This document shows positions 1-51,324 of a stretch of 64,000 bases of DNA, in pieces. The notes beneath the pieces were generated by a model. The model saw nothing but the letters and a program-made list of their open reading frames with translations. It was not told where the DNA came from and made no database searches. The stretch covers positions 112,637-176,636 of the forward strand of contig CAKPOF010000003.1 in the NCBI GenBank assembly GCA_934169725.1. Reading direction: 5' to 3'. The translations under genes and the position numbers were made by a program. How positions within the stretch are numbered: the stretch's first letter is position 1; each line of letters starts with the position of its first letter. The DNA is from an uncultured Clostridia bacterium (GTDB lineage Bacteria; Bacillota; Clostridia; TANB77; CAG-508).

Positions 1-657
1 AGTATTGCATATATTCCAACTGGTACAACAAATGATTTAGCTAAAAGTCTAAATATGCCAGAAAAAGATATATCTATTACTAAAAAATTGTTAGAATCTA
101 AAGCGAGAAGATTAGATGTAGGACAATTTAATGAAAATAAATATTTTTGTTATATAGCAGCCTTTGGAGTTGTAACAGATGTGGCATATAAAACATCACA
201 TAAAGCTAAAAATAAATATGGAAAATTTGCATATTATATAAGAGCATTGTTTGAATTAATAAAAATTCCAACATATAAAACTAAAATAACATTTGACGAA
301 GAAGAATTAGAAGGAGAATTTGTATATGGAGGAATAAGTAATTCTGAGTCAATAGCAGGATTTAAATGGTTTGATAAAGAAGATGTAGATTTGTCAGATG
401 GAAAATTTGAAGCATTATTTATACGAAAACCAAAAAAACTTTCAGGATATTTTAGATTAATAAGTGATTTTAGAAATAAAGATTATATGTCTAATAGAGA
501 TTTTGTTTATTTTAAAGCTAATAAAATTACTGTAACAACAGCACAAAAGGTAGATTGGACAATAGATGGCGAATTTGCAGGAAATATGAATTTTGCAAAT
601 ATAGAAAATAAAAATAAAGCTATAGAATTAGTGGTATGTGATAAAGATAATAAATAA
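1..657 (+). CDS. Diacylglycerol kinase family (DagK/YegS-type) lipid kinase, C-terminal part; 5' end lies outside the window
   Basis: Frame 1 is open from position 1 (SIAYIPTGTTNDLAKSL... is the DAGK catalytic motif region) and continues into the listed ORF 55..657. Confidence 0.75.
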   Translation, partial: SIAYIPTGTTNDLAKSLNMPEKDISITKKLLESKARRLDVGQFNENKYFCYIAAFGVVTDVAYKTSHKAKNKYGKFAYYIRALFELIKIPTYKTKITFDEEELEGEFVYGGISNSESIAGFKWFDKEDVDLSDGKFEALFIRKPKKLSGYFRLISDFRNKDYMSNRDFVYFKANKITVTTAQKVDWTIDGEFAGNMNFANIENKNKAIELVVCDKDNK

Positions 658-700
658 GTAGTATTTTTAAAAATTACAGTTTGTTATATCATTTAATATT

Positions 701-816
701 ATATTGTTTTTTATACCTTGTGTGTCGCAATCTTTATAAAAAATAAAAATGAAGATTGCTCCAAATCGCACTCACTGTCGTTCGTTTGGTCGCTTACGCG
801 GTATTTCAAACAATAT
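701..816 (+). repeat. Intergenic palindromic repeat family A, copy 1. Conserved ends atattgtttt / aaacaatat. Internal hairpin gcaatctt...aagattgc. The perfect inverted repeat (27 bp in total, 18 bp of it copy-specific) extends into the flanks
   Basis: Direct comparison with the copies at 29314 and 52987. The shared core is tccaa(a/t)tcgcactcac...gttcgttt(g/a)(g/a)tcgcttacgcggtatttcaaa. Confidence 0.8.
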
Positions 817-988
817 AATATTAAATGATATAACTAGTGAAAATCATATATCCATAAATAGTAATATAAAATAAAGAATTTATAATAAAATTTTATTAAA
901 AAAGTTGCAATATTTTGCCAATAATAGTATAATATAAAAGGTAGCATAATAATATATAAGAAAATATTATTTAAAGAGAGGTAAAAAA

Positions 989-2251
989 ATGGATTATTTA
1001 TATATATTAAGAGAAGCTTTAGTATGGACTGTAACAATATTTTGGTTATACCAAGTAGTAGTTAGTTTATGTTCTTTAATAAAATTAAAAGATAAACCAT
1101 TAAAAGTAAACAAAGATCACAGATTTATGGCAATTATACCTGCACATAATGAAGAAGCGGTAGTTGCTAATTTAGTAGAAAGTTTAAAAAATCAAACATA
1201 TAATAAAGACTTATATGATATATATGTAATTGCTGATAATTGTACAGATAATACAGCAAAAGTAGCAAGAGATGCTGGAGCAATAGTATATGAAAGATTT
1301 GATGAAACTAAAAAAACAAAAGGATATGCATTAAATTGGTTTTTACAACAAAAAATCAAAGAAAATGCACCATATGATGCATTTTTCGTATTTGATGCTG
1401 ATAATATAGTAGACAAAAATTTCATAAAAAATATGAATAAAAAATTATGTCAAGGTGAAGATGTAGTACAAGGATATAGAGATATAAAAAATCCTTCTGA
1501 CAACTGGATTACAGCAGGATATGCAATATTCTATTGGCAAATGCATAGATTTTATCATTTAGCTAGATACAATATTGGATTATCACCATTACTAAATGGT
1601 ACAGGTTTTATGGTTAAATTTGATGTTATAAAACCACAAGGATGGGATACAGAAACTTTAACAGAAGATATAGAGTTTTCTTTAAAAAGAATTATAAAAG
1701 GTAAAAAATTAGGTTGGGCAACAGATGCTATTGTTTATGATGAACAACCAACAGGATTTAGACAAAGTTGGTCACAAAGAAGCAGATGGACAGTAGGACA
1801 TATTCAATGTATAAAAAAATATACAAAGGATTTAGCAATTGCTGCAAAAGAAAATAAAAAAATGATTAATATAGATGGATTATTTTATATAGTAGGAAGT
1901 ATTCCAATGTTTGTAATAACAATGTTATTATTATTTTCTAATTTTGTAATGTATAATTCATCAGCTATAACATCAGCAGAATTAATAAAAAATATATTAT
2001 TCTATTTACTTCCAACATTTGTATTACCAATATTTATAGGAATGTTTGCTATGTGGTTAGATGGAAGAAAAATTAAACCAATGGCAAAAGGATTACTTTG
2101 TTATCCATTATTCCTATTAACATGGATATTTATCAATTTTAAATGTTTATTTATAAGAAATACTTCATGGGAAAAGATAGACCATGTAAGAAGCATAAAA
2201 ATATCAGATGTTTCTGATGATGAAAATAAGACTGAAAAAGAATTAATTTAA
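989..2251 (+). CDS. Family 2 glycosyltransferase, processive PgaC/IcaA-like exopolysaccharide synthase
   Basis: N-terminal transmembrane segment, FDAD (DxD) motif, QRSRW (QxxRW) motif and four C-terminal transmembrane segments. RBS agagagg. Confidence 0.8.
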   Translation: MDYLYILREALVWTVTIFWLYQVVVSLCSLIKLKDKPLKVNKDHRFMAIIPAHNEEAVVANLVESLKNQTYNKDLYDIYVIADNCTDNTAKVARDAGAIVYERFDETKKTKGYALNWFLQQKIKENAPYDAFFVFDADNIVDKNFIKNMNKKLCQGEDVVQGYRDIKNPSDNWITAGYAIFYWQMHRFYHLARYNIGLSPLLNGTGFMVKFDVIKPQGWDTETLTEDIEFSLKRIIKGKKLGWATDAIVYDEQPTGFRQSWSQRSRWTVGHIQCIKKYTKDLAIAAKENKKMINIDGLFYIVGSIPMFVITMLLLFSNFVMYNSSAITSAELIKNILFYLLPTFVLPIFIGMFAMWLDGRKIKPMAKGLLCYPLFLLTWIFINFKCLFIRNTSWEKIDHVRSIKISDVSDDENKTEKELI

Positions 2252-2327
2252 TATATATAACATATAAGTGGACGTTTAAACTGTTATTTCTTGAAATGAC
2301 AATTCATAATGCTCCACTTATATTATT

Positions 2328-3881
2328 ATGAGTAAGTTGAATTTGAAAGGGACGAATAAAAATATGGAAAAATTAAAAAAAATAAATAAAAAATATTTAC
2401 ATATAGCAATTATTATAATAGGAGTTATATTTTTATTTTTATCATCTTTTCATGAAGATATATGGTTTGATGAAAGTTATTCAGTTGCTATAGCAAAACA
2501 CAATTTTATAGATATTTGGCAAATAACTGGACATGATGTGCATCCACCTTTATATTATTGGATGTTACATATAGTATGGATGATTTTTGGAAATAATGTA
2601 ATTGCATTTAGATTATTTTCAGTTTTAGCAATTGTATTATTGGGGATATTAGGATATACTCACATAAGAAAAGATTTTGGAGATAAAGCTGGTATTTTAT
2701 TTTCTTACTTGGTGTATTTTTTACCAGTAATGTGTACATATAGTCAAGAAATAAGAATGTATTCATGGTCATGTTTATTAATAACACTTTTAGCAATATA
2801 TGCATATAGATTATACAAAAAAATAAAAAACAAAGAAGAAAAAAATGTAAATAGAAATATAATATTGTTTGGTATACTTAGTATATTATCATGTTATATT
2901 CACTACTACGCTTTAGTTTCAGCAGGTTTAATAAATTTTGTGTTATTAATATATATAATAAAAAATAGGAAAAATGTACCTCATATATTAAGAAACTTTT
3001 TGATTTTAGCTTTTGTACAAATAATTTTATATGTTCCATGGTTGATTTACCTAAAAGGTCAAGTATCTCATGTAGAAAGTGGTTTTTGGATATATTTGGG
3101 AATGAGTACATTAGTTGAAGTGCCTAGCTTCCAATTTAGAAGACAATTAGATACTAATTTTTCATTTGATCTAAATACAATAATTGCACTTGTTTCGGCT
3201 TTAGCTATGTATATATATATAGGTTTAAAAATGTATAAAGCTAAAAAAGAAAAAAGTGAAATGTTACCAGGTGTATTAGCTTGGGTTTTGTATGTTGCAG
3301 TTATAGCATCTGTTTTAGTAGTGTCTCTAGTTATGAAACAATCAATATTGTTTGCAAGATACTTACTAGTTATTACTGGGTTATATATATTTGGAATAGC
3401 ATTTTTTATGGCAAAAGAAAAGAAAAATTGGTTAATTATATTAATATGTTCAATAATATTGATTTTAGGATGTATTAGTAATATTACTAACATACAAATA
3501 AATTATGATAGTAGTAATATGAAACAAATAGAATATTTAAGAGAAAATATAAAACAAGATGACATTATAATATATTCTAATATTGGAAATGGTGGAGTAA
3601 TAGCTGCATTTTTCCCAGAAAACAAGCAATATTTTTACAATGGTGAATATTGGGATGTAGAAGAAGCATATAAGGCTTATGGGCCAGCGATGGAAACAAT
3701 TTATAATTATGAAGATGTATTAAAAGATTATCATGGAAGAATATGGTTAATTGATTCAGAAGGTTGTGGATTGTATAATGAAATTCCGAAGGATGGATTA
3801 AAAACTATAGTAGAACCAACTGAATTTGTAACTAGATATCAAAATTACATATATACAATTGTATTGTTAGAAAAAGAATAA
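2328..3881 (+). CDS. Polytopic membrane protein, GT39/ArnT/PMT-like glycosyltransferase fold (the start may instead be the ATG at 2364)
   Basis: More than ten predicted transmembrane helices followed by a soluble C-terminal domain. Sits immediately downstream of the GT2 gene. Confidence 0.55.
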   Translation: MSKLNLKGTNKNMEKLKKINKKYLHIAIIIIGVIFLFLSSFHEDIWFDESYSVAIAKHNFIDIWQITGHDVHPPLYYWMLHIVWMIFGNNVIAFRLFSVLAIVLLGILGYTHIRKDFGDKAGILFSYLVYFLPVMCTYSQEIRMYSWSCLLITLLAIYAYRLYKKIKNKEEKNVNRNIILFGILSILSCYIHYYALVSAGLINFVLLIYIIKNRKNVPHILRNFLILAFVQIILYVPWLIYLKGQVSHVESGFWIYLGMSTLVEVPSFQFRRQLDTNFSFDLNTIIALVSALAMYIYIGLKMYKAKKEKSEMLPGVLAWVLYVAVIASVLVVSLVMKQSILFARYLLVITGLYIFGIAFFMAKEKKNWLIILICSIILILGCISNITNIQINYDSSNMKQIEYLRENIKQDDIIIYSNIGNGGVIAAFFPENKQYFYNGEYWDVEEAYKAYGPAMETIYNYEDVLKDYHGRIWLIDSEGCGLYNEIPKDGLKTIVEPTEFVTRYQNYIYTIVLLEKE

Positions 3882-3900
3882 TAAAAGGATACATAAGAAT

Positions 3901-5253
3901 ATGAATAATAAGATAGATATAAAAAAAAGCATATCTAATTTAATATTTACAATAATTTTATTTTTAGCGTTATATTTTGCGTATAGATTTTATCAAATTC
4001 ATAATTTTAATGAATTTATTAGAAGTGAAGCAAATATGGGATGTACAGAATTTAAAAGAGATAACAAAGAAAAATATTCAAAAATGAAGAGTTATGAAAT
4101 TAATTCAAACGATTTTAATGATGCCATGTTTTCTAAAGATATACAAGTAGAAAGAGATACACCATATAAAGTATCTTGTATGGTAAAAACGAAGAATGTA
4201 ATAGGAGATAAAGATACATCAGATATAGGTGCTCAAATTTCAATAAGTGATACTACTGAGAGATCAATATCTGTAAAAGGAGATAGTGAGTGGCAAAAAA
4301 TTGAATTGATATTTAATTCAAAAAATAGAACAAGTGTAAATATAGCATTTCGCTTAGGAGGAAGTGATGGATATGCTAAGGGAAATGCATGGTTTTCTGA
4401 CTTTTCTATAGAACAAGGAGAAAAAGATGATAATAATAACTGGAAATTTGCATGTTTAATATTTGACAATACAAGTGTAACTATAAATAATAATCCAGTT
4501 GATATACAAATTACAAGTAATGATATTGTAGATATAAAAAATACAATAAATAGGTTTGAAAAATCATGTAATACTTTATCAGAAAATAAAATGACTGCTG
4601 ATTGTGATATATATGAAATACAAGATCCAATCACATCTTTATCATATGATGATCAATTTGGATATTATGTTTCACCAGAAGATATTGAAAAACAAATAAA
4701 TAATGTTATAAATAAAAATGATTATGATCATATTTTTGCAATTATAAGATTAGGAAATGATGAACACAAAGATGATATTGAAATAAAAGATTGGATAGGT
4801 CTTGGGTCTATGGATTATTACGGTGTAGGATTTTCTAATATTAGATTGCCAAACAGTTCAAAAAGTTATATATATAAATATAATACTAGGGTTAACCAAT
4901 TTCCAGAGGAAGTTTTTTTACATGAATTTTTACATTCTTTAGAAAGAACGGCTAAAGAATATGGTTATCAAATTCCAGAACTACATGGATATAAAGAATA
5001 TGGATATCAAAATGAAGTTATTATTGGGCAAAAAAAATGGTATACAGATTATATGAATAAAAATATAAAAACAGCTGATGGATATACAGGCTTGCCAAAT
5101 GAAATATATACTATGAAACCAGCCAAAAAGTCTAATTTTGATTTTCCAATAGCATTAGATGTTTATGAAGAACCGCAAAACGTTATAGAAGAAATAAGAG
5201 GAATATTTGGTAATTTATTTAGAAATGCAAAAATCATAATTGGAAAAATATAA
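3901..5253 (+). CDS. Membrane-anchored secreted protein with an HExxH (HEFLHSLE) motif, a putative zinc metallopeptidase-like domain
   Basis: N-terminal transmembrane anchor. The HEFLH motif resembles the M64/M60-like HEFGH motif. RBS aaagga. Confidence 0.5.
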   Translation: MNNKIDIKKSISNLIFTIILFLALYFAYRFYQIHNFNEFIRSEANMGCTEFKRDNKEKYSKMKSYEINSNDFNDAMFSKDIQVERDTPYKVSCMVKTKNVIGDKDTSDIGAQISISDTTERSISVKGDSEWQKIELIFNSKNRTSVNIAFRLGGSDGYAKGNAWFSDFSIEQGEKDDNNNWKFACLIFDNTSVTINNNPVDIQITSNDIVDIKNTINRFEKSCNTLSENKMTADCDIYEIQDPITSLSYDDQFGYYVSPEDIEKQINNVINKNDYDHIFAIIRLGNDEHKDDIEIKDWIGLGSMDYYGVGFSNIRLPNSSKSYIYKYNTRVNQFPEEVFLHEFLHSLERTAKEYGYQIPELHGYKEYGYQNEVIIGQKKWYTDYMNKNIKTADGYTGLPNEIYTMKPAKKSNFDFPIALDVYEEPQNVIEEIRGIFGNLFRNAKIIIGKI

Positions 5254-22064: not shown

Positions 22065-22345
22065 ATAAAACATAAAATAATTTTAATAAATAAAAACGAA
22101 GAAAAAGAGAAGTACATTTAAAACTAATTTAAAGAGAATAGAAGTCGATGGCTGTGAGCTTCTAAAATAAAGATAAATGGAAAGTAACTTTAGAGTTGAT
22201 AATCCGAAAATAAACTTAAGATTATCCGTAATACTGCGTTAAAGTAAAAAGAGATATCATCTAATTAATTAGATGATAATTAAGGTGGTACCGTGAGAAT
22301 AGCTCGCCCTTATGCTTAGTAAATAGCATATTGGCGAGTTTTTAT
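22065..22345 (+). promoter_or_regulatory. T-box riboswitch leader, probably valine-specific, with an intrinsic terminator
   Basis: T-box sequence aattaaggtggtaccgtg at 22277-22294. Terminator ctcgcc...ggcgag plus a T-run at about 22301-22345. Candidate specifier codons GUA (22183-85) and GUC (22143-45). Upstream promoter tggaca-N17-tataat at about 22029-22058. Confidence 0.8.
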
Positions 22346-22376
22346 ATATTTGTTCTATATTAGGAGGGATGAAAAA

Positions 22377-23231
22377 ATGTTAAAAATACAGACAAAAAAA
22401 CTAGGAGCTGAGCTAACTAGTATACAATGTAATGGCAAAGAGATGTTGTTTCAAGGCAAAGAAATATTAGATGATACGGGGAATCCATATTGGAAAAGAC
22501 AAGCACCCATATTGTTTCCAATTGTTGGTCAACTAAAGGATTCAAAAACTCAAATAGATGGAAATTTATACGAGATGACACAACATGGATTTGCAAGAGA
22601 TATGGAGTTTGAAGAGGTATCAAAATCAGAAAATAAACATCATTATGTATTAAAATATAATGAAGATACATTAAAACGATATCCTTATAAATTTGAATTG
22701 CACATTATATATGAAATTGTTGAAAATACATTAATAGTAAAATATGAAGTAAAAAATATAGATGACAAGACAATATATTTTGGATTAGGAGGTCATCCAG
22801 CATTTAACTGTGCTTATAGCAATGAGGAATATGAAATTGTATTTCCACAAGAAGAAAATATTGAATTTTTAAAATTAAAAAATGGATTAGTGGATACAGA
22901 AAAAGCTCAAAATATTTTAGTAGATAAAAAAATTCATTTGAAAGAAGATACATTTGATAATGATGCAGTAATAATGAAAAATATAAAGTCAAATACAATA
23001 ATATTGCAAAATAAAAAAACAAATAAAAAAATATTAGAATTTGATTTTACAGGATTTCCATATTTGGCATTATGGTCAAAAAGAGGAGCCCCATTTGTCT
23101 GCATTGAACCATGGCAAAATACAGCAGATAGAATTGATAGTACACAAGTTTATAAAGATAAAGAAAATATTATTAAACTAGAAAAAAATAATATGTTTGA
23201 ATGTAAATATTCAATTAAATTTTATGATTAA
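22377..23231 (+). CDS. Aldose 1-epimerase family protein (galactose mutarotase-like)
   Basis: WKRQAPILFPIVGQL...HGFAR motifs. The start is placed at the ATG after the RBS aggaggg. Confidence 0.7.
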   Translation: MLKIQTKKLGAELTSIQCNGKEMLFQGKEILDDTGNPYWKRQAPILFPIVGQLKDSKTQIDGNLYEMTQHGFARDMEFEEVSKSENKHHYVLKYNEDTLKRYPYKFELHIIYEIVENTLIVKYEVKNIDDKTIYFGLGGHPAFNCAYSNEEYEIVFPQEENIEFLKLKNGLVDTEKAQNILVDKKIHLKEDTFDNDAVIMKNIKSNTIILQNKKTNKKILEFDFTGFPYLALWSKRGAPFVCIEPWQNTADRIDSTQVYKDKENIIKLEKNNMFECKYSIKFYD

Positions 23232-23244
23232 GGAGGATTATTTT

Positions 23245-25917
23245 ATGAGTGAAAAATTAAGTAATAAATATAACCCACAGGAATTTGAAGAAAAATTATA
23301 TCAAGAATGGGAAGAAAAAGGCTATTTTAAACCAAGCATGGACAAAACAAAAGAAAGTTTTTGTATTATGATGCCACCACCAAATGTAACAGGTAAATTA
23401 CACATGGGGCATGCATTAGATGATACAATTCAAGATATATTAATTCGTTTCAAAAGAATGCAAGGATATAATACTTTATGGTTGCCAGGTAGTGATCATG
23501 CGGCGATTTCTACAGAAATGAAAGTAGTTGAAAAATTAAGAAATGAAGGAAAAACAAAACAAGAATTAGGAAGAGAAAAATTTTTAGAAGAAGCATGGGA
23601 ATGGACTAAACTTTATGGTGGTACTATAGAAATGCAACAAAAAAAATTAGGATGTTCTTGTGATTGGGAAAGAAGAAGATTTACATTAGATGAAGGTTTA
23701 TCAGATGCGGTATTAGAACAATTTGTTGATTTATATAAAAAAGGTTTAATATATAAAGGAACAAGAATGATAAATTATTGCCCAAATTGTAAAACTTCAA
23801 TATCAGATGCAGAAGTAGAATATAAAGAAGAAGCTTCTCATTTATGGCATATTAGATACAAAGTATCTGGTGAAGAAAATAGATATATTATTGTTGCAAC
23901 AACAAGACCTGAAACAATGCTGGGAGATACGGCTGTTGCTGTCCATCCAGAAGATGATAGATATAAGGATTTAGTTGGAAAAACATGTATATTACCAATT
24001 ATGAACAAAGAAATTCCTATTATAGCAGATAAGTTTGTTGAAAAAGAATTTGGGACAGGTTGTGTTAAAATCACACCTGCACATGATATAAACGATTATC
24101 AAGCTGGATTAAGACATAATCTTGAAATTATAGAAGTTTTTGACGAAAACAATAAGATGAAAGATTTAGTTCCTGAGTATAAAGGAATGGATATATTAGA
24201 AGCAAGAAATTTAATTGTAAAAAAATTAGATGAATTAGGAGATTTAGTAAAAACAGAAGATTATACACATAATGTCGGAAAATGTGAAAGATGTAAAACA
24301 ACAATAGAACCTAAAATATCAGAGCAATGGTTTGTATCAATGAAACAATTAGCACAAAGAGCAGCTGATTCTGTAAGAAATGAAGAAGCTAAATTTATAC
24401 CAAAAAAATACGAAAAGCAATATTTTAACTGGTTAGATAATATTCAAGATTGGTGTATCTCTAGACAATTGTGGTGGGGACATCAAATACCTGCGTATTA
24501 TTGTGATGAATGTGGACATATAAATGTTGATAAAAAAGCACCAGAAAAATGCGAAAAATGTGGAAGCACTAAATTACATCAAGATCCAGATACATTAGAC
24601 ACTTGGTTTAGTTCAGCATTATGGCCATTTTCAACACTAGGTTGGCCAAATAAAGAATCAGAGGATTATAAAATGTTTTATCCTACAAATGTATTGGTAA
24701 CAGGGTTTGATATTATTACATTCTGGGTATCAAGAATGATGTCACAAGGATTGGAATTCACAGGAAAAGCACCATTTAAAGATATATTGATACATGGTAT
24801 GGTACGTGATAGCCAAGGAAGAAAAATGTCAAAAACTCTAGGAAATGGAATAGACCCAATTGAAATAATAGATAAATATGGAGCTGATAGTTTAAGATTT
24901 GCTGTTATTTCAGGAACAACAATGGGAAATGATATAAGATATATGCCAGAAAAATTAGAACAAGCGTCAAATTTTGCTAACAAAATATGGAATGCTACAA
25001 AATTCATAAGAAACAATGATGTAAAAGATGAAGACATTGTTAATTTCCATAAAAAAGTCTATAATAATGGCAAATATAAATCAGAATTATTAAATATAGA
25101 AGATAAATGGATTATAACTAAAATAGAAAAACTAATTGTAGAAGTTACTAACAATATTGAAAATTATGATTTAGGTGTTGCGTTAGATAAAATTTATAAC
25201 TTCATTTGGAATGAGTTTTGCGATTGGTATATAGAAATGGTAAAAACAAGATTATATAGTGAAGATTATCAAGAAAAAGTAAAAGTATCGTATATGTTAA
25301 ATTATGAATTTAGTATATTAATGAAATTATTACATCCTTTTATGCCATTTGTTACGACAGAAATATATAGAAATTTAGTTAAATATGATGATAAAGATTT
25401 AATCATTTCTGAATGGCCTAAATCAAATAATCAAGATTTTTCAAAAGATTTTGAATTTGTAGAAAGATTAAAAAGAATTATTACTGAAATAAGAAATACA
25501 AGAGCTAATATGAATGTACATCCATCAAAAAAAGCAAATTTAATTTTTGTTACAAAAGAGTATGATAATCAACTAAATGAAGCCAAGGAATTTTTATTAA
25601 AACTTGGATTTGGAAACAAAATAATTATTCAAAATGATAAAACAGGAATTAAAGATAATGCTATTAGTATAGTAGAGGATGGAATAGAACTATATATGCC
25701 GTTTGAAGGATTGGTTGATATAGAGCAAGAAATAAAAAGATTAGAAGAGGAAAAGAAAAAATTAGAGGGTGAAGTAGCAAGATGTGAAAAAATGTTATCA
25801 AACCCTGGTTTTATGAATAAAGCACCACAAAATAAGATTGATGAAGAAAAAGGAAAATTAAATAAGTATCAACAGATGTTAGAAAAAATAAATGAAAATT
25901 TGAGAAAAATTTCATAA
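23245..25917 (+). CDS. valS: Valyl-tRNA synthetase
   Basis: HMGH motif, KMSKT motif and a C-terminal coiled coil. RBS aaggagga. The listed upstream extension to 23197 overlaps the preceding gene and is rejected. Confidence 0.93.
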   Translation: MSEKLSNKYNPQEFEEKLYQEWEEKGYFKPSMDKTKESFCIMMPPPNVTGKLHMGHALDDTIQDILIRFKRMQGYNTLWLPGSDHAAISTEMKVVEKLRNEGKTKQELGREKFLEEAWEWTKLYGGTIEMQQKKLGCSCDWERRRFTLDEGLSDAVLEQFVDLYKKGLIYKGTRMINYCPNCKTSISDAEVEYKEEASHLWHIRYKVSGEENRYIIVATTRPETMLGDTAVAVHPEDDRYKDLVGKTCILPIMNKEIPIIADKFVEKEFGTGCVKITPAHDINDYQAGLRHNLEIIEVFDENNKMKDLVPEYKGMDILEARNLIVKKLDELGDLVKTEDYTHNVGKCERCKTTIEPKISEQWFVSMKQLAQRAADSVRNEEAKFIPKKYEKQYFNWLDNIQDWCISRQLWWGHQIPAYYCDECGHINVDKKAPEKCEKCGSTKLHQDPDTLDTWFSSALWPFSTLGWPNKESEDYKMFYPTNVLVTGFDIITFWVSRMMSQGLEFTGKAPFKDILIHGMVRDSQGRKMSKTLGNGIDPIEIIDKYGADSLRFAVISGTTMGNDIRYMPEKLEQASNFANKIWNATKFIRNNDVKDEDIVNFHKKVYNNGKYKSELLNIEDKWIITKIEKLIVEVTNNIENYDLGVALDKIYNFIWNEFCDWYIEMVKTRLYSEDYQEKVKVSYMLNYEFSILMKLLHPFMPFVTTEIYRNLVKYDDKDLIISEWPKSNNQDFSKDFEFVERLKRIITEIRNTRANMNVHPSKKANLIFVTKEYDNQLNEAKEFLLKLGFGNKIIIQNDKTGIKDNAISIVEDGIELYMPFEGLVDIEQEIKRLEEEKKKLEGEVARCEKMLSNPGFMNKAPQNKIDEEKGKLNKYQQMLEKINENLRKIS

Positions 25918-30296: not shown

Positions 30297-30391
30297 CTGA
30301 AAATTCAAATTTTTATATTGAAAAAAAATAAAATAAAATGTATAATACAAATCAGCATAATACAAAAGTAAATCAAGAAAGGATACAGAAA

Positions 30392-31399
30392 ATGATACAA
30401 ATAGAAAATAAAGATGGAAATAATTTTGGGAAAATATATGGGGACACAAAAACTGCTATTCCAAAAATAAAAGCAATAGGAATAGGCGGTGGTGGAAATA
30501 ATGCTGTCAGACAGATGATAGAAGACAATGTAAAAGATGTTGAATTTTATTTTATAAATACAGAACTTGCTATGTTAAACAAAACAAGAATGGATAATGT
30601 TTTACAAATAGGTAAAGAAACTACCAAAGGATTAGGAGCAGGAGCTAATCCAGCAATGGGAGAAAAAGCAGCATTAGAAAGCAAAGAAGATATAAAACAA
30701 TTATTACAAGGTACAAGTTTATTATTTTTAACTGCAGGAATGGGCGGAGGCACTGGAACAGGTGCAATACCAGTTGTTGCAGAAGTAGCTCAAGAAATGG
30801 GAATCCAAACAATTGCAATTGTAACAAAACCATTTATATTTGAGGGGAAAATGAGAGCGAGCAGAGCTGAAAATGGAATTGAAAAATTAAAACAACATGT
30901 AAATAGTTTGATTTTAATTTCAAATGATAAATTATTACAAATTGCTGGAAATAAAAAAATGAGTATTATAGATGCTTTTAAAATGGCAGATAATGTTTTA
31001 GAACAAGGAATAAAAAGTATAACTGATTTAATTACATCTGTAGGAGATGTTAATGTTGACTTTGCTGATATTTCTACAATGCTTAGATATAAAGGAATGG
31101 CTTATATGGGAATAGGTGAAGCGTCTGGAGAACTTAGAATTATTGATGCAGTAAATCAAGCGATTAATAATCCGCTTACAGAAAATAAAATTAATAATGC
31201 AAAAGGTGTAATATTTAATGTTAGAGGAAGTTCAAATTTGGCATTAAGTGAAATTAGTGATGGAATTGCTAAAATAAATGATTTAATTAGTGCAGAAGCA
31301 AATGTTGTTTTTGGTACAACTACAGATGAATCTTTAGATGACAAAGTAGTTGTTACAGTCATTGCTACAGGCGTTGATGAAGGATACAATAATAATTAA
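30392..31399 (+). CDS. FtsZ-family tubulin-like GTPase that lacks the C-terminal linker and conserved tail peptide (a paralog of ftsZ?)
   Basis: [17 protein letters not shown] and NxDFAD motifs. It ends right after the core (..[12 protein letters not shown]). It is not in a dcw cluster context. Confidence 0.75.
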
Positions 31400-31513
31400 A
31401 ATATGATTACTATTTTGCTTGATAATAAAGTAATTCAATATATATTTATTGAAACTAAACGAACATTAGAGAGAGCAAATTGGAGCAAAATAGAAAGGTA
31501 TAAAGGGATGTTT

Positions 31514-32065
31514 ATGAATGAAGAAGTAATATTAGCAAAATCCGCAAAAGATAAAATAATAGAGTATGTGACATATTTTTTTATATATTCATTTCTTGGT
31601 TGGATAATAGAAACAATTTATGCAATATTTGTGCATGGACATTTTGTAAAAAGAGGTTTTTTATATGGTTCAATATGTCCAATATATGGTTTTGGTGCTG
31701 TCTTATTAATAATTGTAACAAAAAAATTATATAAAAATGCTTTTTTAAGATTTTTGATAGCAACAATAGCATTTACAACATTTGAGTATATTGTATCTGT
31801 TGTTTTAGAATTAGTATTTCAATTAAGATGGTGGGATTATTCAAATGATTTTTTAAATATAAATGGAAGAGTAAGTTTACCATATGCAGTTTTCTGGGGA
31901 TTTATAGGAATAGTAATGTTAGAAAAAATACATCCACATGTACAAAATAAAATACAAAAAATAACTAAAAAGAGTAATAAAGTACAATTAATATCAAGTA
32001 TTATATTTGTTATTCTGTTGATATTAGATACTGTATTATCTACAATAAAATATTTAGAAATATAA
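31514..32065 (+). CDS. Polytopic membrane protein (PF06541/'putative ABC-transporter type IV'-like), a paralog of the gene at 35153
   Basis: FLGWIIETIYAIF...RWWDYSN...NINGRVSL is shared with the 35153..36085 product. Confidence 0.6.
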   Translation: MNEEVILAKSAKDKIIEYVTYFFIYSFLGWIIETIYAIFVHGHFVKRGFLYGSICPIYGFGAVLLIIVTKKLYKNAFLRFLIATIAFTTFEYIVSVVLELVFQLRWWDYSNDFLNINGRVSLPYAVFWGFIGIVMLEKIHPHVQNKIQKITKKSNKVQLISSIIFVILLILDTVLSTIKYLEI

Positions 32066-32124: not shown

Positions 32125-32175
32125 TAGTCGAAAACTTAAATCGGCAAGAACAAAGGGCGACCTAAAGTCACTTTG
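32125..32175 (+). repeat. Repeat family B, copy 1 (51 nt)
   Basis: tagtcgaaaacttaaatcggcaagaacaaagggcgacctaaagtcactttg. It is 47/51 identical to the reverse complement of 49475..49525. Confidence 0.75.
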
Positions 32176-32238
32176 TTGTGTATACATATTTTACATAAAA
32201 ACATATTATATATAAAATGTAATAAAGGAGGGAGATTT

Positions 32239-32817
32239 TTGGAATTAACGGGAAAAAAGGTAGGTTTTGTATTAACAGGATCATTTTGTACATTTAAGAA
32301 AGTGATACCCAAAATAAAAGAAATGATAAAATTAGGAGCTGATATTTTGCCAATAATGTCATTTAATAGTTACAATTTGGATACAAAATTTGGAAAAGCG
32401 GAAGATTTTATAAATGAAATAGAAGAAATAACTAATAAAAAAATAATTCATACTATAACCGAAGCTGAACCAATAGGACCTAAAAAAATGACAGATATTA
32501 TGGTTATAGCACCATGTTCAGGAAATACTATGGCAAAATTATCATGTGATATTATAGATACACCAGCTGTGATGGCTGCAAAATCACACTTAAGAAATAA
32601 TAGGCCTTTGGTTATAGCACCGTCAACAAATAATGGATTGAGTGGAAATGCAGAAAATATTGGGAAGTTATTAAATAGAAAAAATTATTATTTTGTTCCA
32701 TTTAGACAAGATAACCCAATTACTAAGCCGCGTTCTATTGTTTTTGATGCTGAATATATAATAAAAACTATTAAATATGCATTAGATGGAGAACAAATAA
32801 GTCCAATATTGATATAA
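32239..32817 (+). CDS. dpaB: Dipicolinate synthase subunit B (SpoVFB/DpaB flavoprotein)
   Basis: GKKVGFVLTGSFCT...IAPCSGNTMAKL...YFVPFRQDNP closely matches Bacillus SpoVFB. TTG start after RBS aaggaggga. No dpaA gene is adjacent. Confidence 0.8.
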   Translation: MELTGKKVGFVLTGSFCTFKKVIPKIKEMIKLGADILPIMSFNSYNLDTKFGKAEDFINEIEEITNKKIIHTITEAEPIGPKKMTDIMVIAPCSGNTMAKLSCDIIDTPAVMAAKSHLRNNRPLVIAPSTNNGLSGNAENIGKLLNRKNYYFVPFRQDNPITKPRSIVFDAEYIIKTIKYALDGEQISPILI

Positions 32818-32908: not shown

Positions 32909-33202
32909 ATGAAAAGAATTAAAAATAAATTTATAAAAAATGTGGTAATATTAATGTTAATCATTATAAGTATGGTTATTATATTGATAAACAAAACATA
33001 TTCTGAATGTAAAGAAAATTATAAATTATCATATATAACTAAAGGAGATACATTATGGAAAATAGCAGAAACCGAAGTTAAAAATAACCAATATTTTAAA
33101 AATAAGGATGTTAGAAATGTAATATTAGAAATAAAAAAAGTAAATAATTTGACTAATAGTAATTTGTCAGAGGGAATGCAAATAAAAATTCCAACATATT
33201 AA
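32909..33202 (+). CDS. Small membrane-anchored LysM domain protein
   Basis: N-terminal transmembrane segment. LysM-like ITKGDTLWKIA...MQIKIP. Confidence 0.6.
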   Translation: MKRIKNKFIKNVVILMLIIISMVIILINKTYSECKENYKLSYITKGDTLWKIAETEVKNNQYFKNKDVRNVILEIKKVNNLTNSNLSEGMQIKIPTY

Positions 33203-33326
33203 AATAAATTTGAAACCTTTTATTTCATAAGATAAAAGGTTTTTCGATTTGTTCTATATTTATTAACTATTGTACAAAAAAAACACTTATGATAAAATAC
33301 AAGAAAAAAGAGAGGAGAATATTGTT

Positions 33327-35102
33327 ATGAGTGATAAAACCAATAAATATGACTGGGATTTAACAGAATTATTTAAAGATAAAGAAGATTTTTATAGAGC
33401 AATAAATATAGTAAGTGAAAAGATTGAAACAATAAAAAAATATAAAGGAGTTTTATGTAATAGTTCAGACAATTTATATAATTGTTATAAAATCTATGAA
33501 GATATATTAATTGATTTTGATAAAATATATTCATATGGAATGTTTTCATATCACTTAAATATGGCAGATCAAGATGGAATAAAATTATTTAAAGAAGTAG
33601 AAAAATTATCTACAAATTTTGGAACAGCTATTTCTTTTATAACACCTGAAATTACATCAGCAGAAGAAAATGTAATAAATAAATACATAAATGAAGATAA
33701 TAGACTTGAGAAATACAAAAGAGATATAAAAGATATATTGGAAAAGAAAAAACATATTTTAAGTAAAGAAGAGGAAAATTTATTAGCAAGTTATTCTGAA
33801 GTATTTTCAGCCCCTGAAAACATTTTTGATATATTAACAAATGCAGAATTTAAATTTGGAAAGCTAATAGATGAAGACGGAAAAAGTGTAGAAATGACAG
33901 ATGCAACATATACAAAATATTTAAAAAGCAGTAATGTAGAAGTTAGAAAACAAGCTTTTGAATTAATGTATAAAAAATACAAAGAATATATAAATACAAT
34001 TACAGAAATATATTTAGCAAATGTAAAACAAACAGCAATAACATCAAAATTAAGAAAATATAAATCTTCATTAGAAAAAGCAACAGTATATGATGATTCA
34101 AGTATAAAAGTATATGAGGTATTAATGCAAGGTGTAAATGAAGGAATAAATATTAATTATAGTTTTATTGAATTAAAGAAAAAATTATTAAAGAAAAAAG
34201 AATTTCATATGTATGATTTATATGTAAACCCATTTGAAGTAAAAAAAGATAGTATATCATTTGAAGATGCAAAAGAAGAAGTGAAAAAAGCATTAGCTAT
34301 ATTAGGAGAAGAATATAGTCAAATGTTAGAAAAAGCTTTTGAAAATAATTGGATAGATGTATATGAAAAACCAAATAAAAGAGGAGGAGCTTATAGTTCA
34401 GGTGTCTATGGAGTACATCCATTTGTTTTAATGAGTTTTACAAATAATAAAAGAGATGTAAGTACTATTGCTCATGAATTAGGGCACAGTATGCATTCAT
34501 ATTATTCTAGTAAAAATCAAAATATAATTGATTCCAATTACACAATAATGGTTGCAGAAGTTGCATCAACAGTAAATGAAATATTACTTAGCGAATATCA
34601 AATAAAAAATGAAACAAATAAACAAAAAAAGGCAGAACTAATTTATGAGATATTAGAGATGATACGAGCTACATTTTATAGACAATCAATGTTTGCTGAA
34701 TTTGAAAAAAAAGTACATGAAAAAATTGAAAAGGGAGAAATGTTATCAGCTGAAGATTTAAATAATATATATTATAAATTAAATCAAAAATATTTTGGAA
34801 ACAGTATACATATAGATGATGAAATTAAATATGAATGGGCTAGAATACCACATTTTTATTCTGATTTTTATGTATATAAATATGCTACAGGAATATCAGC
34901 TGCTATATGTATAGCAACAAAAATTTTGAATAAAGAAGAAGGATTTGTAGAAAAATATATAAATATGTTAAGTCAAGGATGTACAAAAAAGTCAATAGAA
35001 TTATTAAAAATGGTAGATGTAGATTTAGAAAATATAAATACATATAGGATAGTATCACAATATTATAAAGATAAAATATCAGAACTAGAATCTTTGATTT
35101 AA
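33327..35102 (+). CDS. pepF: Oligoendopeptidase F (M3B family)
   Basis: HELGHSMH zinc motif. Start at the ATG after RBS agaggagaa. Confidence 0.88.
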   Translation: MSDKTNKYDWDLTELFKDKEDFYRAINIVSEKIETIKKYKGVLCNSSDNLYNCYKIYEDILIDFDKIYSYGMFSYHLNMADQDGIKLFKEVEKLSTNFGTAISFITPEITSAEENVINKYINEDNRLEKYKRDIKDILEKKKHILSKEEENLLASYSEVFSAPENIFDILTNAEFKFGKLIDEDGKSVEMTDATYTKYLKSSNVEVRKQAFELMYKKYKEYINTITEIYLANVKQTAITSKLRKYKSSLEKATVYDDSSIKVYEVLMQGVNEGININYSFIELKKKLLKKKEFHMYDLYVNPFEVKKDSISFEDAKEEVKKALAILGEEYSQMLEKAFENNWIDVYEKPNKRGGAYSSGVYGVHPFVLMSFTNNKRDVSTIAHELGHSMHSYYSSKNQNIIDSNYTIMVAEVASTVNEILLSEYQIKNETNKQKKAELIYEILEMIRATFYRQSMFAEFEKKVHEKIEKGEMLSAEDLNNIYYKLNQKYFGNSIHIDDEIKYEWARIPHFYSDFYVYKYATGISAAICIATKILNKEEGFVEKYINMLSQGCTKKSIELLKMVDVDLENINTYRIVSQYYKDKISELESLI

Positions 35103-35152: not shown

Positions 35153-36085
35153 ATGAGCGAGAAAGAATTAGAAAAGGATAGGACAAATGTTAAAGAAAAA
35201 ATTGAAAAAATAAATGAAGCACAAAATAATAGTTCAGAAATAAAGGTAAAGAATAAATTAAATATAAATGGGATAAGTATATGGAGAATTTTGGCATATT
35301 TTATAATATATAGTGTAGCTGGATATGTTATTGAAACAGTTTATGGAATGGTAACAAAAGGTGTTTGGGAAAGTAGACAAAGTTTTTTATATGGACCTTT
35401 TTGTGGAATATATGGACTAGGTGCAGTGGTAATGATTGTATGTCTGCACAAAATTCCTAAAAAATTTAATGCATTATTTTTGGGAGGTTTTATTGTTGGA
35501 TCAATTGTTGAGTATATCGTAAGTTTTGTAGGAGAAATGTTACTTGGATTAAAATGGTGGGATTATTCTAATATGCCACTTAATATTAATGGAAGAATTT
35601 GCGTGTATTATTCAATATTTTGGGGATTTTTAGGTATATATTTGATAGCATCTCTAAATCCTAAAATAGATAAAATAATAGACTGGACAAAGAGTAAATT
35701 TAAAACATATAAGGGATTAAAAACATTTGTAACGACAGTATGTATATTGTTATTAATTGATTGTATATCTACAGCATTTGCACTTGAATTTTTCTTGGTA
35801 AGAATGATAGTTAAATATGATTTAAATGTTGAAAATAGAGATATTATCCAGCAACAATATGATAAAATTTATAATAATGAGAAATTATCTAATTTTATTT
35901 ATAAATTTTGGGGAGATAAGAAGATGATACGAACATTTCCCAATATAAAGATAACAGATAAAGAACAAGAAATTATATATATGGATAGTTTATTACCTGA
36001 TATACAACCATATTATACAAAAGTGCATGTAAAAAATTTTAAAAATAGTGAAGAAGTTGAAAAAATAATACAAGATTTGATGTAA
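35153..36085 (+). CDS. Polytopic membrane protein (PF06541-like), a paralog of 31514..32065 with N- and C-terminal extensions
   Basis: Shared core YSVAGYVIETVYG...LKWWDYSNMPLNINGRI. Confidence 0.6.
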   Translation: MSEKELEKDRTNVKEKIEKINEAQNNSSEIKVKNKLNINGISIWRILAYFIIYSVAGYVIETVYGMVTKGVWESRQSFLYGPFCGIYGLGAVVMIVCLHKIPKKFNALFLGGFIVGSIVEYIVSFVGEMLLGLKWWDYSNMPLNINGRICVYYSIFWGFLGIYLIASLNPKIDKIIDWTKSKFKTYKGLKTFVTTVCILLLIDCISTAFALEFFLVRMIVKYDLNVENRDIIQQQYDKIYNNEKLSNFIYKFWGDKKMIRTFPNIKITDKEQEIIYMDSLLPDIQPYYTKVHVKNFKNSEEVEKIIQDLM

Positions 36086-39018: not shown

Positions 39019-39660
39019 ATGAACAATAAAGAAATGTTTGAAGAAAAGACAGATGAAGAATTAATCAAATTAATACATGATGGGGATAATGATGCATTAG
39101 AAACATTGATTACAAGATATGAAAGTATAGTAAAAAAATTATCAAATAATTTTTTTATAACAGGTGCAGAACAAAGTGATGTTTTTCAGGAAGGGCAAAT
39201 TGGACTATATTCTGCTATAAAAAATTTCAAAATTGAAAATAATGCAAAATTTAAAACTTTTGCAATTTTATGTATAAAAAGAAAATTAATAACAGCATTA
39301 AAAAACTCAAATAGACAAAAACAAGTTATTTTAAATGATGCAATATCATTAAATGCTTCTACAGGAAATGGATGTGAAGAAAATCCAGAAATGATTGAAT
39401 TTATTAAAGATAGTGTTGTAAAAGATCCATTAGATATTATCGTTGATTATGAATATCAAAATGCGATGAAAAATGCTATTTATAACAAATTAAGTGCAAA
39501 AGAGAAAGATGTTCTTAACGAATACATAAAAGGAAAGTCATATAGTGAAATTGCTACTACATTAAATTGTAAAGAAAAATCAGTAGATACAGCATTAACT
39601 CGAATCAGAAGAAAAGCTAATGAAATACAAAAAGATGTAAATTCAAAATTTTTAAAATAA
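39019..39660 (+). CDS. sigH: RNA polymerase sigma factor SigH (sporulation/stationary phase)
   Basis: Region 2 (FQEGQIGLYSAIKNF) and a region 4 helix-turn-helix. Size and sequence are typical of Firmicutes SigH. Confidence 0.8.
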   Translation: MNNKEMFEEKTDEELIKLIHDGDNDALETLITRYESIVKKLSNNFFITGAEQSDVFQEGQIGLYSAIKNFKIENNAKFKTFAILCIKRKLITALKNSNRQKQVILNDAISLNASTGNGCEENPEMIEFIKDSVVKDPLDIIVDYEYQNAMKNAIYNKLSAKEKDVLNEYIKGKSYSEIATTLNCKEKSVDTALTRIRRKANEIQKDVNSKFLK

Positions 39661-39808: not shown

Positions 39809-40678
39809 TTGAAAATGAATAAAAATATAAATAAGATAATAGAAGAAATATGTAGAAAGGAAATAAAAGGAAAAAAAATAAATGATGAGCCATTATGTGT
39901 ATTATTAGGAGGTCTACCAGGTTCAGGAAAGACAAATCTTGTAAAACAAATACAAGAAGAATATAAGGAGCGTGATTTTGTGATTATAGATACGGATAAT
40001 TACAGAAAACTACATCCAGATTATGAATTATTAAAAAAAATACCTGAAAAAGCGATAAATGAAACAAGTAAATTTTCTAACATAATAGAAGCTGAATTGA
40101 TAAAAAAAGCAATTAAAGAGCATTGTGATATTATAAGTGTAACAACATTGAGAGCTTCAGAAGCAATAAATAGAATTTTATATGAACCTGCTGTAAATGG
40201 GGGGTATAAAATGGAGGCATGTATTATGTCAGTTCCTATAAGTGAAAGTGGATTATCAGCGCAAAATAGATATGAAAAGCAAATTGCTGATGGAGAATGT
40301 CCACGATTTACACCAATGAGTTTTATAGAAACATCTTTTCAAGGAATAAAAGAAACAATACAAATGCTTCAAAGAAAAAACGATAATCCTATAATTAAAG
40401 TATATAATCGAGGGATAGGAGAAAAATCTATGCCAATAGAGTTTTACAATAGCCAAGAAAAAAATTCTAGATATAGTTGTGCTTTAGAAGCTTTTTTGGA
40501 TTCTATGAAATCTTTAGATAATAAAAAAGCAATTGAACAAATAAATGAATTATATAAGATAAAACAAAATCGAGATGCAAATAGTATAGAGTATTCTTCG
40601 TTAGAAAGACTAAAGGAACTTTTTGAAGTAGAAAAAAATAGAGAAAGAGAATATAAAAATTGTAATTTTGTAATATAA
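39809..40678 (+). CDS. Zeta-toxin family P-loop kinase (PezT/UNAG-kinase-like) with no adjacent epsilon antitoxin
   Basis: Walker A GGLPGSGKTN. Zeta-toxin-like ..FVIIDTDNYRK.. Confidence 0.7.
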   Translation: MKMNKNINKIIEEICRKEIKGKKINDEPLCVLLGGLPGSGKTNLVKQIQEEYKERDFVIIDTDNYRKLHPDYELLKKIPEKAINETSKFSNIIEAELIKKAIKEHCDIISVTTLRASEAINRILYEPAVNGGYKMEACIMSVPISESGLSAQNRYEKQIADGECPRFTPMSFIETSFQGIKETIQMLQRKNDNPIIKVYNRGIGEKSMPIEFYNSQEKNSRYSCALEAFLDSMKSLDNKKAIEQINELYKIKQNRDANSIEYSSLERLKELFEVEKNREREYKNCNFVI

Positions 40679-49905: not shown

Positions 49906-51324
49906 ATGAGTTTTGTAAATGAAAAATTGAATGAATTTAATGAATATATAAAATACAGAAAAGTGGCTATAATAGGATTAGGAGTTAGTAATCTACCGCT
50001 TTTAGATTATTTATACGAAAAGAAAGCAAATGTTACTATATTTGATGAAAGAAATTATGAAGAAATACCAAAAGATATTGCTGAAAAAATATCAAATTAT
50101 GGATATATATTTCATTATGGTAAAGATTGTTTGCAATATTTAAAAAATTTTAATGTTATTTTTAGATCACCAAGTTGTTTGCCAACAAAACTTGAATTGG
50201 TAGAAGAATCAAAAAGAGGAGCAATAGTTACAACAGAAGTTGAATTATTAATGGAAATGTCACCTGCAAAAATAATAGGTGTTACAGGTAGTGATGGAAA
50301 AACAACAACAACAAGTTTAATAAATTCAATTTTACAACAAGCTGGTTATAATACTTTTTTAGGTGGAAATATAGGGACACCATTATTTACTAAATTAGGA
50401 GAAATACAACCAGAAGATATTGTTGTTTTGGAATTAAGTAGTTTTCAATTGATGGGAATGCAAATAAGTCCACAAATTTCAGTTATTACTAATATAACAC
50501 CAAATCACTTGAATATACATAAAGACTACCAAGAATATATAGATGCTAAGAAAAATATATTTAAATATCAAGATGAAAAAGGAATATTAGTTTTAAATTA
50601 TGATAATGATATAACAAAAAAATGTGCTGAAGAAGCAAATGGAAAAGTGATTTTCTTTAGTAGTAAAGCTAAATTAGATAATGGATATATTGTTGATGAA
50701 GGAGTCATAAAAGAATGTGATGATAAAGTAAGAAAACATATCTTAGATACAAATGATGTAATATTGAGAGGAAATCACAACTATCAAAATATAGCAACTG
50801 CAATAGCTGCAACTTCAACATTGGTTGATATTGACACTGCATTAAAAGCAATAAAAAGCTTTAAACCAGTAGAGCATAGAATAGAATTTGTTAGAGAAAT
50901 TGATGGAGTAAAATGGTATAATGATTCAGCAAGTTCATCTCCATCTAGAACATTATCAGGATTAAATGCATTTGATGAAAAAATTGTTTTAATAGCTGGA
51001 GGATATGACAAAAATTTAGATTATACACCAATGGCTAAAACGGTTGTAGACAAGGTAAAAGCATTAATTTTAATAGGTCAAACATCTGGAAAAATATATG
51101 ATGCTGTAAAGCAAGAACTAGAAAATCAAGGTAAAAAAATGAATATCTATATGTGTAATACATTAGAAGATACAATTCCAATTGCAAAAAAGAATGCTAG
51201 TAAAGGTGATGTTGTATTATTTTCACCAGCAAGTGCAAGTTTTGACATGTTTAAAAATTTTGCAGATAGAGGAAATCAGTTTAAAGATTTAGTAAAAAAT
51301 ATTAAAAACGAAAAGAGTCTATAA
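49906..51324 (+). CDS. murD: UDP-N-acetylmuramoylalanine--D-glutamate ligase
   Basis: GVTGSDGKTTTTSL P-loop and a Mur ligase C-terminal domain. Confidence 0.85.
   Translation: MSFVNEKLNEFNEYIKYRKVAIIGLGVSNLPLLDYLYEKKANVTIFDERNYEEIPKDIAEKISNYGYIFHYGKDCLQYLKNFNVIFRSPSCLPTKLELVEESKRGAIVTTEVELLMEMSPAKIIGVTGSDGKTTTTSLINSILQQAGYNTFLGGNIGTPLFTKLGEIQPEDIVVLELSSFQLMGMQISPQISVITNITPNHLNIHKDYQEYIDAKKNIFKYQDEKGILVLNYDNDITKKCAEEANGKVIFFSSKAKLDNGYIVDEGVIKECDDKVRKHILDTNDVILRGNHNYQNIATAIAATSTLVDIDTALKAIKSFKPVEHRIEFVREIDGVKWYNDSASSSPSRTLSGLNAFDEKIVLIAGGYDKNLDYTPMAKTVVDKVKALILIGQTSGKIYDAVKQELENQGKKMNIYMCNTLEDTIPIAKKNASKGDVVLFSPASASFDMFKNFADRGNQFKDLVKNIKNEKSL

Follow-up and report, generated by a model that had tools for sequence, protein, structure and literature searches.

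The window analysed here, a 64,000-nucleotide (nt) stretch of DNA from an uncultured Clostridia bacterium with a G+C content of 26-27%, carries on its forward strand a gene for an FtsZ protein that consists of the core alone. The open reading frame (ORF) spans positions 30338-31399 (+), with the supported start at the ATG at 30392, which gives a protein of 335 amino acids (aa). This assignment rests on the GAAAGGA sequence upstream of the codon, on the MIQIE N-terminus and ribosome-binding site, which are kept in related loci, and on the gene calls of public contigs, which start at the same ATG; the more distant loci L034 and L035 begin with MVK or MVR. The gene and the signals in and before it are the following.

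30318..30346, + strand: sigma-A-type promoter, TTGAAA-17 nt-TATAAT, 11 of 12 consensus positions (promoter scan).
30377..30383, + strand: ribosome-binding site GAAAGGA, 8 nt 5' of the start codon; related loci show a conserved AAGGAAGG or AAAGGA at the same position.
30392..31399, + strand: tail-less ftsZ paralog, 335 aa, core only (stop codon included).
30485..30505, + strand: G1 nucleotide-binding motif GGGGNNA, residues 32-38, in (nearly) invariant columns of the 27-sequence family alignment.
30557..30565, + strand: NTE, residues 56-58; E58 is invariant in the tail-less (short) clade described below, where canonical FtsZ has Asp (D46 in Bacillus subtilis and Staphylococcus aureus numbering).
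30743..30763, + strand: T4 tubulin signature GGGTGTG, residues 118-124, invariant in the alignment.
31052..31069, + strand: T7 synergy loop NVDFAD, residues 221-226, with N221, D223, F224, A225 and D226 invariant.
31370..31396, + strand: C-terminal end of the protein, with no linker or C-terminal peptide beyond the last core strand (alignment with canonical FtsZ).

The protein is confirmed as a genuine FtsZ that lacks both the linker and the C-terminal peptide. The Tubulin/FtsZ GTPase domain PF00091 covers residues 25-185 (E 1.7e-45) and the FtsZ_C domain PF12327 residues 235-329 (E 7.6e-26), and the NCBIfam equivalog model TIGR00065 (ftsZ) is matched over residues 22-331 with 360.7 bits, above its cutoff of 295.2. 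The initial annotation had credited the protein with every FtsZ GTPase motif, and GGGGNNA, GGGTGTG and NVDFAD are indeed all in place; the T7 synergy loop is required for GTP hydrolysis within the FtsZ polymer. Its observation that the protein ends right after the core holds equally well: translation terminates 8 residues past the last core strand, whereas canonical relatives extend for 45-60 or more further residues, up to the peptide [DE]IP[SPA]FLR[KR]. An AlphaFold (AF2) model, computed with the 27-sequence family alignment as input, reached a mean predicted local distance difference test score of 79.8, with low confidence confined to residues 1-21, 217-221 and 332-335. The top Foldseek matches of this model are B. 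subtilis FtsZ, with template modelling scores of 0.87-0.95, a root-mean-square deviation of 1.7 Å and 48% identity.

At the N-terminus, residues 1-24 (window positions 30392-30463) form a peptide that is longer in this genus and its sister group than in other short FtsZs. It reads MIQIENK.GNNYGNIYGE.K..IPK in the genus and MV[KR]PELDDGIGAQRVIGGIP in the sister group, and is conserved inside each group.

The tail-less proteins form a compact family confined to one lineage. In public metagenome assemblies, 122 blocks encode a protein identical to that of the window and ending at the same stop codon. Among the best 120 database relatives (60-100% identity), nearly all stop 0-20 residues from the VTVIATG motif, the exceptions being fragments and chimeras, and the full-length members measure 300-352 aa. 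In a species-representative collection, relatives with 81-91% identity occur in about 30 metagenome-assembled genomes (MAGs) labelled uncultured Clostridia, Eubacteriales or Clostridium, which derive from human (Hadza, Brazil) and chicken gut. The genome collection holds two further relatives at 69-70%, and the next best match, at 54%, is a canonical FtsZ of Oscillospiraceae; beyond it come ordinary FtsZs of many phyla at 43-49%. A metagenome scan returned four relatives with 84-90% identity, none of them from the window species. Searching 1.84 billion cluster representatives with the family profile gave 8,939 FtsZ-like sequences (E <1e-30), of which only some three single-domain representatives exceeded 400 bits; one of these, P0259, is another tail-less form.

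The relation of this family to canonical FtsZ was assessed with a neighbour-joining tree of 27 short and 17 canonical FtsZs over 315 core columns and 100 bootstraps, in which the canonical sequences were B. subtilis FtsZ and sequences taken from fetched loci, the Alphaproteobacteria being represented by canonical FtsZ. The short sequences form one clade in 100 of 100 bootstraps, placed on a long stem among Firmicutes FtsZs and apart from the canonical and the alphaproteobacterial canonical FtsZs. This placement suggests a duplication independent of the alphaproteobacterial paralogs. The clade also leaves out a canonical FtsZ located on the same contig as one of its members. That member, P0073 (322 aa, 62-63% identical to the window protein), is encoded on the 229-kb Hadza gut contig L091, in the order murA-ftsQ-DUF881-DUF881-DUF1290-ftsA-ftsZ(373 aa)-spoIIGA-sigE-sigG-ylmC-PDDEXK_5-short ftsZ, which is repeated in L092. 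The short gene lies 4 kb downstream of the ftsQ-ftsA-ftsZ-spoIIGA-sigE-sigG cluster. The 373-aa canonical protein ends in ...DLDIPPFLRKNRNKNM / ...SQNDLDIPPFLRKNRNKNM, with a textbook C-terminal peptide (DLDIPPFLRK); it is 51% identical to the window protein and 56% identical to the short copy on its own contig. Since both genes stand together on the L091 contig, the tail-less family is a true paralog of canonical FtsZ. The category of specialised paralog proposed by the initial annotation is therefore the right one, given the monophyly of the clade and the L091/L092 contig. The same canonical ftsA-ftsZ-spoIIGA cluster was found in two more lineages of the bacterial family (L099 and L200), followed there by an apparent ribosomal RNA (rRNA) operon.

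Several public entries in this sequence space are assembly artefacts. Those named FtsZ under P0021, P0022, P0023, P0035, P0136, P0137 and P0150 are either chimeras joined at conserved motifs (short with canonical or short with short) or canonical sequences with internal duplications, and P0102 and P0108 are likewise among the chimeras and fragments in the database relatives. The chimeras P0021-23 and P0035 were considered as a link between the paralogs and rejected, as they join FtsZ genes of different organisms. A separate observation concerns L093:11105-11815 (+), where a 236-aa ORF of the P0069 lineage lies directly 3' of the short ftsZ. It is a degenerate homolog of the FtsZ N-domain (hhalign probability 93.5%, E 2.3e-7, 28% identity over 134 columns) in which the GGGTGTG loop is gone and no Pfam match remains, and it may represent a third, pseudo-GTPase FtsZ-like gene.

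The short gene shows a ratio of nonsynonymous to synonymous substitution rates (dN/dS) of 0.055-0.135 within the genus, which identifies it as a working gene under purifying selection. Its pace differs markedly from that of the canonical gene. Among the best 120 matches to the L091 canonical copy, nearly all are 91-98% identical, linker included, the few lower-scoring ones being assembly artefacts with internal duplications. Between L091 and L099, canonical FtsZ is 92.5% identical (dN 0.048 for the canonical pair), although FtsQ has fallen to 52% and SpoIIGA to 61%. Short copies from different genera share 60-66% identity with dN of 0.27-0.30, so that the short copy evolves roughly 6 times faster than the canonical one, the compared pairs coming from different organisms; this rate resembles that of SpoIIGA (about 61% identity between genera) and not that of canonical FtsZ.

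The short clade and the canonical FtsZ of its bacterial family carry different fixed residues at 28 positions. These are concentrated in residues 45-104 and 285-304, the G1, T3, T4, T5 and T7 loops being retained. The change that stands out most turns NTD into NTE (D46E) and leaves E58 invariant throughout the short clade. The D46 residue lies in the nucleotide pocket of FtsZ, and PDB entry 7ojd is S. aureus FtsZ(D46A), mutated at the position equivalent to E58.

The promoter of the short gene is conserved as well. A TTGA(A/C)(A/T)-16/17-TATAAT element precedes the start codon by 60-82 nt in 31 of 32 related loci, despite differing genes and sequence farther upstream, and sigma-A-like promoters also precede the short ftsZ of L091, L093 and L094.

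With a confidence slightly better than even, the window gene is interpreted as an accessory, GTPase-competent FtsZ that acts beside a canonical tailed FtsZ and tunes the Z-ring. In this model, the canonical protein would be encoded elsewhere in the genome, beside ftsA and spoIIGA-sigE-sigG, and the short gene would be transcribed from its own strong promoter of the housekeeping type. The retained nucleotide pocket and T7 loop lead one to expect that the short protein polymerises. The FtsZ tail binds FtsA, SepF, EzrA, ZapD and other partners, and by the established functions of the FtsZ domains a catalytically intact core is able to polymerise without it. Devoid of linker and peptide, the short FtsZ would bind neither FtsA, SepF and EzrA nor other tail partners and would have no access to the membrane on its own. 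Most likely, it would co-assemble with tailed FtsZ, or associate laterally and bundle alongside it. This would lower the density of tails in the Z-ring and alter tether density as well as filament dynamics and turnover, in parallel with what is proposed for the truncated FtsZ1 of Agrobacterium and for chloroplast FtsZ1. Polymerisation, co-assembly and the modulatory role are what we infer from the sequence and from these parallels.

A canonical copy is very probably present in this genome too. The genus falls within a clade that elsewhere is accompanied by canonical FtsZ, the canonical protein is very strongly constrained across the bacterial family, and the short copy changes about as fast as would be expected of an accessory protein. 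The window contains no ftsA, ftsQ, spoIIGA, dcw (division and cell wall) cluster or second ftsZ, and murD stands solitary at 49906-51324, which bears out the placement outside any dcw cluster given in the initial annotation. A scan of the genome collection with patterns specific to the short protein returned loci of the short clade from MAGs and no second ftsZ copy.

Several points weigh against the accessory reading. For this species, neither the window nor the roughly 10 kb past its 3' end yielded a canonical ftsZ; the added stretch, reached through the guaA region, reads secA-prfB-yabP-yabQ-divIC-rho without ftsZ. The two commonest canonical variants (P0236 and P0169) sit in canonical ftsA-ftsZ-spoIIGA loci, but they come from samples other than the 13 in which the species was seen. 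A separate polymer would be just as compatible with the way residues 45-104 and H10 have diverged and with the invariant D-to-E substitution in the nucleotide pocket. The conserved N-terminal peptide of about 24 residues in the genus and sister group could also bind a partner.

The genes around the short ftsZ bear on these alternatives, and the features are as follows.

22090-22314, + strand: T-box leader RF00230, 118 bits, the sole Rfam match in the window.
31403..32065, + strand: PF06541 membrane protein (CmpB-like, 'putative ABC-transporter type IV'), directly 3' of ftsZ; the adjacency is species-specific.
32173-32817, + strand: dpaB, dipicolinate synthase subunit B (TIGR02852, 245.7 bits against a cutoff of 229).
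32909-33202: LysM-like ORF, 97 aa.
33270-35102: pepF.
35153-36085, + strand: second PF06541 gene, which like the first is no more than 5 kb away from the short ftsZ.
39019-39660: SigH-like sigma factor, 169 bits, under the curated cutoffs.
39809-40678, + strand: zeta-toxin family gene, between the SigH-like sigma gene and uvrB.

Upstream of ftsZ lie valS, a SleB-like hydrolase gene, a polysaccharide deacetylase gene (-), a D-Ala-D-Ala carboxypeptidase gene (-) and a zinc phospholipase C-like gene, an order that recurs in a few relatives (L007, L025, L027 and L031). Downstream, the PF06541, dpaB, LysM-like and pepF genes, the second PF06541 gene, and tcdA/ThiF-like, aminotransferase, ttcA-like and SigH-like sigma genes follow one another. 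The PF06541, dpaB, LysM and pepF genes are missing from the 31 related MAG loci; in most loci of the genus, ftsZ is solitary and convergent with a MurJ/SpoVB-type flippase gene and a VanW gene.

No + strand terminator was seen between the short ftsZ and the adjoining PF06541 ORF. The real start of the latter probably lies about 110 nt further in, as its homologs measure 182-183 aa (183 aa in the gene call of L005). A single PF06541 gene occurs 1-4 kb from the short ftsZ in L087, L033 and L094 and is not found in most loci of the genus. As a conserved membrane anchor or partner, PF06541 was rejected for being missing from other loci of the genus. Two other candidates for a conserved partner met the same fate: the 227-aa membrane protein encoded downstream in L091 has a homolog only in L095 (52% identity), and a 95-aa ORF of L087 was found again in two other loci only.

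The strongest competitor to be weighed is an FtsZ that serves the onset of sporulation and aids the polar shift of the Z-ring, the asymmetric septum or engulfment, which is possible though doubtful. Such a protein would supply extra FtsZ subunits, much as the sigma-H-driven rise of ftsAZ does in B. subtilis. All carrying lineages have sporulation genes near the short ftsZ: spoIIGA-sigE-sigG lies 2-4 kb upstream in L091, sigH is directly upstream with cotJABC close by in L089 and L093, yabG, sipL, yunB and bofC are nearby in L094, and ctpB-like and SPL genes in L095. A MurJ/SpoVB-type flippase gene adjoins in the relatives of the genus and, together with a thioredoxin gene, in L096, and the window itself holds dpaB, the SigH-like sigma gene and SleB-, PdaA- and Dac-like genes. 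However, the clade as a whole keeps none of these adjacencies, and those to sigH, sigE and sigG are restricted to L089, L093 and L091. The conserved promoter is of the sigma-A type, which speaks against control by a sporulation sigma factor, and in L093 the short ftsZ is set apart from sigH by a terminator and a sigma-A-like promoter of its own. The control gene guaA of the same species also adjoins sporulation genes (yabP and yabQ, with divIC), which points to a high background. The recurrence of sporulation genes is suggestive, and the link circumstantial, since such genes are common throughout these genomes. Of the 'sporulation-flavoured neighbourhood' in the initial annotation, the presence of dpaB, LysM-like, pepF and SigH-like genes stands, but as a neighbourhood it is not conserved in the 31 related MAG loci, and the guaA control looks similar. 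A more specific and unlikely variant makes the short FtsZ a sporulation-onset 'tail diluter' that, by co-polymerising with the tailed FtsZ, would loosen FtsA/SepF anchoring at mid-cell and permit polar, asymmetric septation. If true, the short FtsZ would achieve at the protein level what the sigma-H-driven FtsZ rise and SpoIIE action do in B. subtilis, and the sigH/sigE/sigG neighbourhoods would be a trace of this role.

A filament that works apart from the Z-ring, on DNA, organelles or spore structures in the manner of TubZ, PhuZ or FtsZm, is quite unlikely. The long stem branch and the 28 fixed differences would fit it, and the degenerate FtsZ N-domain gene in L093 hints at a small paralog system. 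Yet the protein is a close FtsZ relative, above the equivalog cutoff and 47-51% identical to canonical FtsZ from many phyla, and no outlier of the TubZ/PhuZ type, and no conserved partner gene such as tubR lies alongside. A search of phages and plasmids gave no match of at least 60% identity, the best being ordinary ftsZ genes at no more than 51%, and the chromosomal synteny of the short ftsZ is conserved in the genus. The suggestion of plasmid or phage partitioning that accompanied the initial annotation is accordingly not upheld for this true FtsZ. It is very unlikely that the short copy is the sole FtsZ of the genus, the canonical one having been lost and a tail-independent tether (the N-terminal peptide or a membrane protein) having taken over. 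The look-ups made tied no canonical ftsZ to the species, the dcw genes are scattered, the N-terminal extension is conserved in the genus, and a PF06541 gene adjoins here and lies near in L087, L033 and L094. Against this stand the nesting of the genus within the paralog clade and the identity of at least 91% of canonical FtsZ across genera, which argues that it is indispensable, whereas the short copy evolves about as fast as SpoIIGA. The PF06541 adjacency is missing from nearly all loci of the genus, and the N-terminal peptide is predicted to be disordered, with no conservation beyond the genus and sister group. A decaying duplicate, or a truncation introduced by assembly or annotation, has a virtually negligible probability. 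Although several database relatives are chimeras or fragments, the identical protein with its stop recurs in the 122 assembly blocks, the end point is kept across 60-100% identity, dN/dS is low, the catalytic motifs are invariant and both promoter and ribosome-binding site are conserved; conservation refutes this reading.

Some further observations concern the same regions. The T-box leader precedes an aldose-1-epimerase-like ORF (22350-23231), which overlaps the start of valS (23197-25917). The dpaB gene of the window has no adjoining dpaA, and a lone flavoprotein gene of the same type is present in L090. The zeta-toxin gene is strain-variable, being found in L002 and L006 and not in L001 and L003-L005. 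At the 3' end of the window (61507-64000, +), secA continues past the last position; it is followed in the strains (L192-L199) by a variable integrase or ToxN island, and then by prfB, an amino-acid kinase gene, yabP, yabQ, divIC and rho. The locus L093, from another genus, begins with a secA of 82% nucleotide identity, with sigH and the short ftsZ following after another 8 kb, which indicates a loose, rearranged macro-synteny of secA, sigH and short ftsZ.

Around the canonical cluster, L099:14200-19800 has 43% G+C and no called genes, lies directly after ftsZ-spoIIGA-sigE-sigG-ylmC, and is where most short-read contigs stop; it is probably an rRNA operon. In L200, L202, L203 and L207 (approximately positions 1-4700), murA upstream of ftsQ-ftsA-ftsZ is disrupted in its 5' part by an element that encodes a 547-aa large serine recombinase, RhuM, a helix-turn-helix protein and a metallophosphatase, while murA is intact (418 aa) in L201 and L204-L206. 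This element resembles the intervening elements that are excised in sporulation.

Returning to the accessory, Z-ring-tuning FtsZ favoured here, the short clade is best filed as a probably independently evolved truncated accessory FtsZ that was not previously found described in Clostridia. In the open literature, truncated FtsZ paralogs were found for Alphaproteobacteria, chloroplasts and archaea and none for Clostridia. In Firmicutes, ftsZ is usually regarded as a single-copy gene, and a large survey that covered the cell-division genes of 304 species of this phylum counts it as monogenic (PMC8136486). The short FtsZ would add an independent pair of tailed and tail-less FtsZ to those so far represented by Alphaproteobacteria and chloroplasts. 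Its hosts are endospore formers, which switch between medial and polar division, and it would provide a natural experiment in which Z-ring behaviour can be related to the density of tails and to GTPase tuning (the invariant D46E). Interest would grow further if a link to asymmetric division or the status of sole FtsZ proved true; in practice, work on it is limited by the fact that every carrier seen so far is an uncultured bacterium of the gut.

Compared with canonical Firmicutes FtsZ (B. subtilis and S. aureus; PDB 2vxy, 2rhj, 3voa), the window protein shares the fold, the motifs and the TIGR00065 match. It differs in having no linker or C-terminal peptide, in its location away from ftsA, in a roughly 6-fold faster evolution, and in NTE for NTD together with 27 other fixed differences. 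Magnetospirillum FtsZm, the FtsZ paralog of the magnetosome island in an alphaproteobacterium, is tail-less as well, but belongs to a magnetosome operon and has a non-division role. In chloroplasts, FtsZ1 retains a C-terminal extension and has ARC3 as a partner. The chloroplast FtsZ1/FtsZ2 pair is like the present case in that one paralog carries the C-terminal anchor peptide and the other does not; unlike it, the pair belongs to a eukaryotic organelle, is of cyanobacterial origin and has demonstrated co-assembly, which is here a matter of inference. There, FtsZ2 forms the backbone with the anchor-binding C-terminal peptide, and FtsZ1 has been proposed to remodel FtsZ2-based rings in heteropolymers (PMC3494859).

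TubZ, PhuZ and FtsZl-1/2 are remote FtsZ/tubulin families, encoded on plasmids, in phages or at membrane-remodelling loci (PMC2875224). Like the short FtsZ, they are extra GTPases of the tubulin superfamily outside division clusters; they are highly divergent, however, and come with dedicated partners or mobile elements, whereas the short protein is a true FtsZ encoded on the chromosome. The truncated paralogs of Rhizobiaceae and Phyllobacteraceae (Agrobacterium tumefaciens FtsZ1, Sinorhizobium meliloti FtsZ2) provide a further comparison. A. tumefaciens FtsZ1 is described as tail-less, GTPase-active, able to co-polymerise with the essential FtsZAT, and dispensable (bioRxiv 10.1101/412759). 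Its overexpression blocks division, and truncated ftsZ duplicates outside dcw clusters arose several times in bacteria (bioRxiv 10.1101/2025.09.29.679267). The short clade differs from these paralogs in its phylum, in its anaerobic, spore-forming hosts and in the clade-specific D46E change. It shares with them a complete GTPase core without linker or peptide, a position outside the dcw cluster, and a long-maintained clade of its own apart from the canonical copy.

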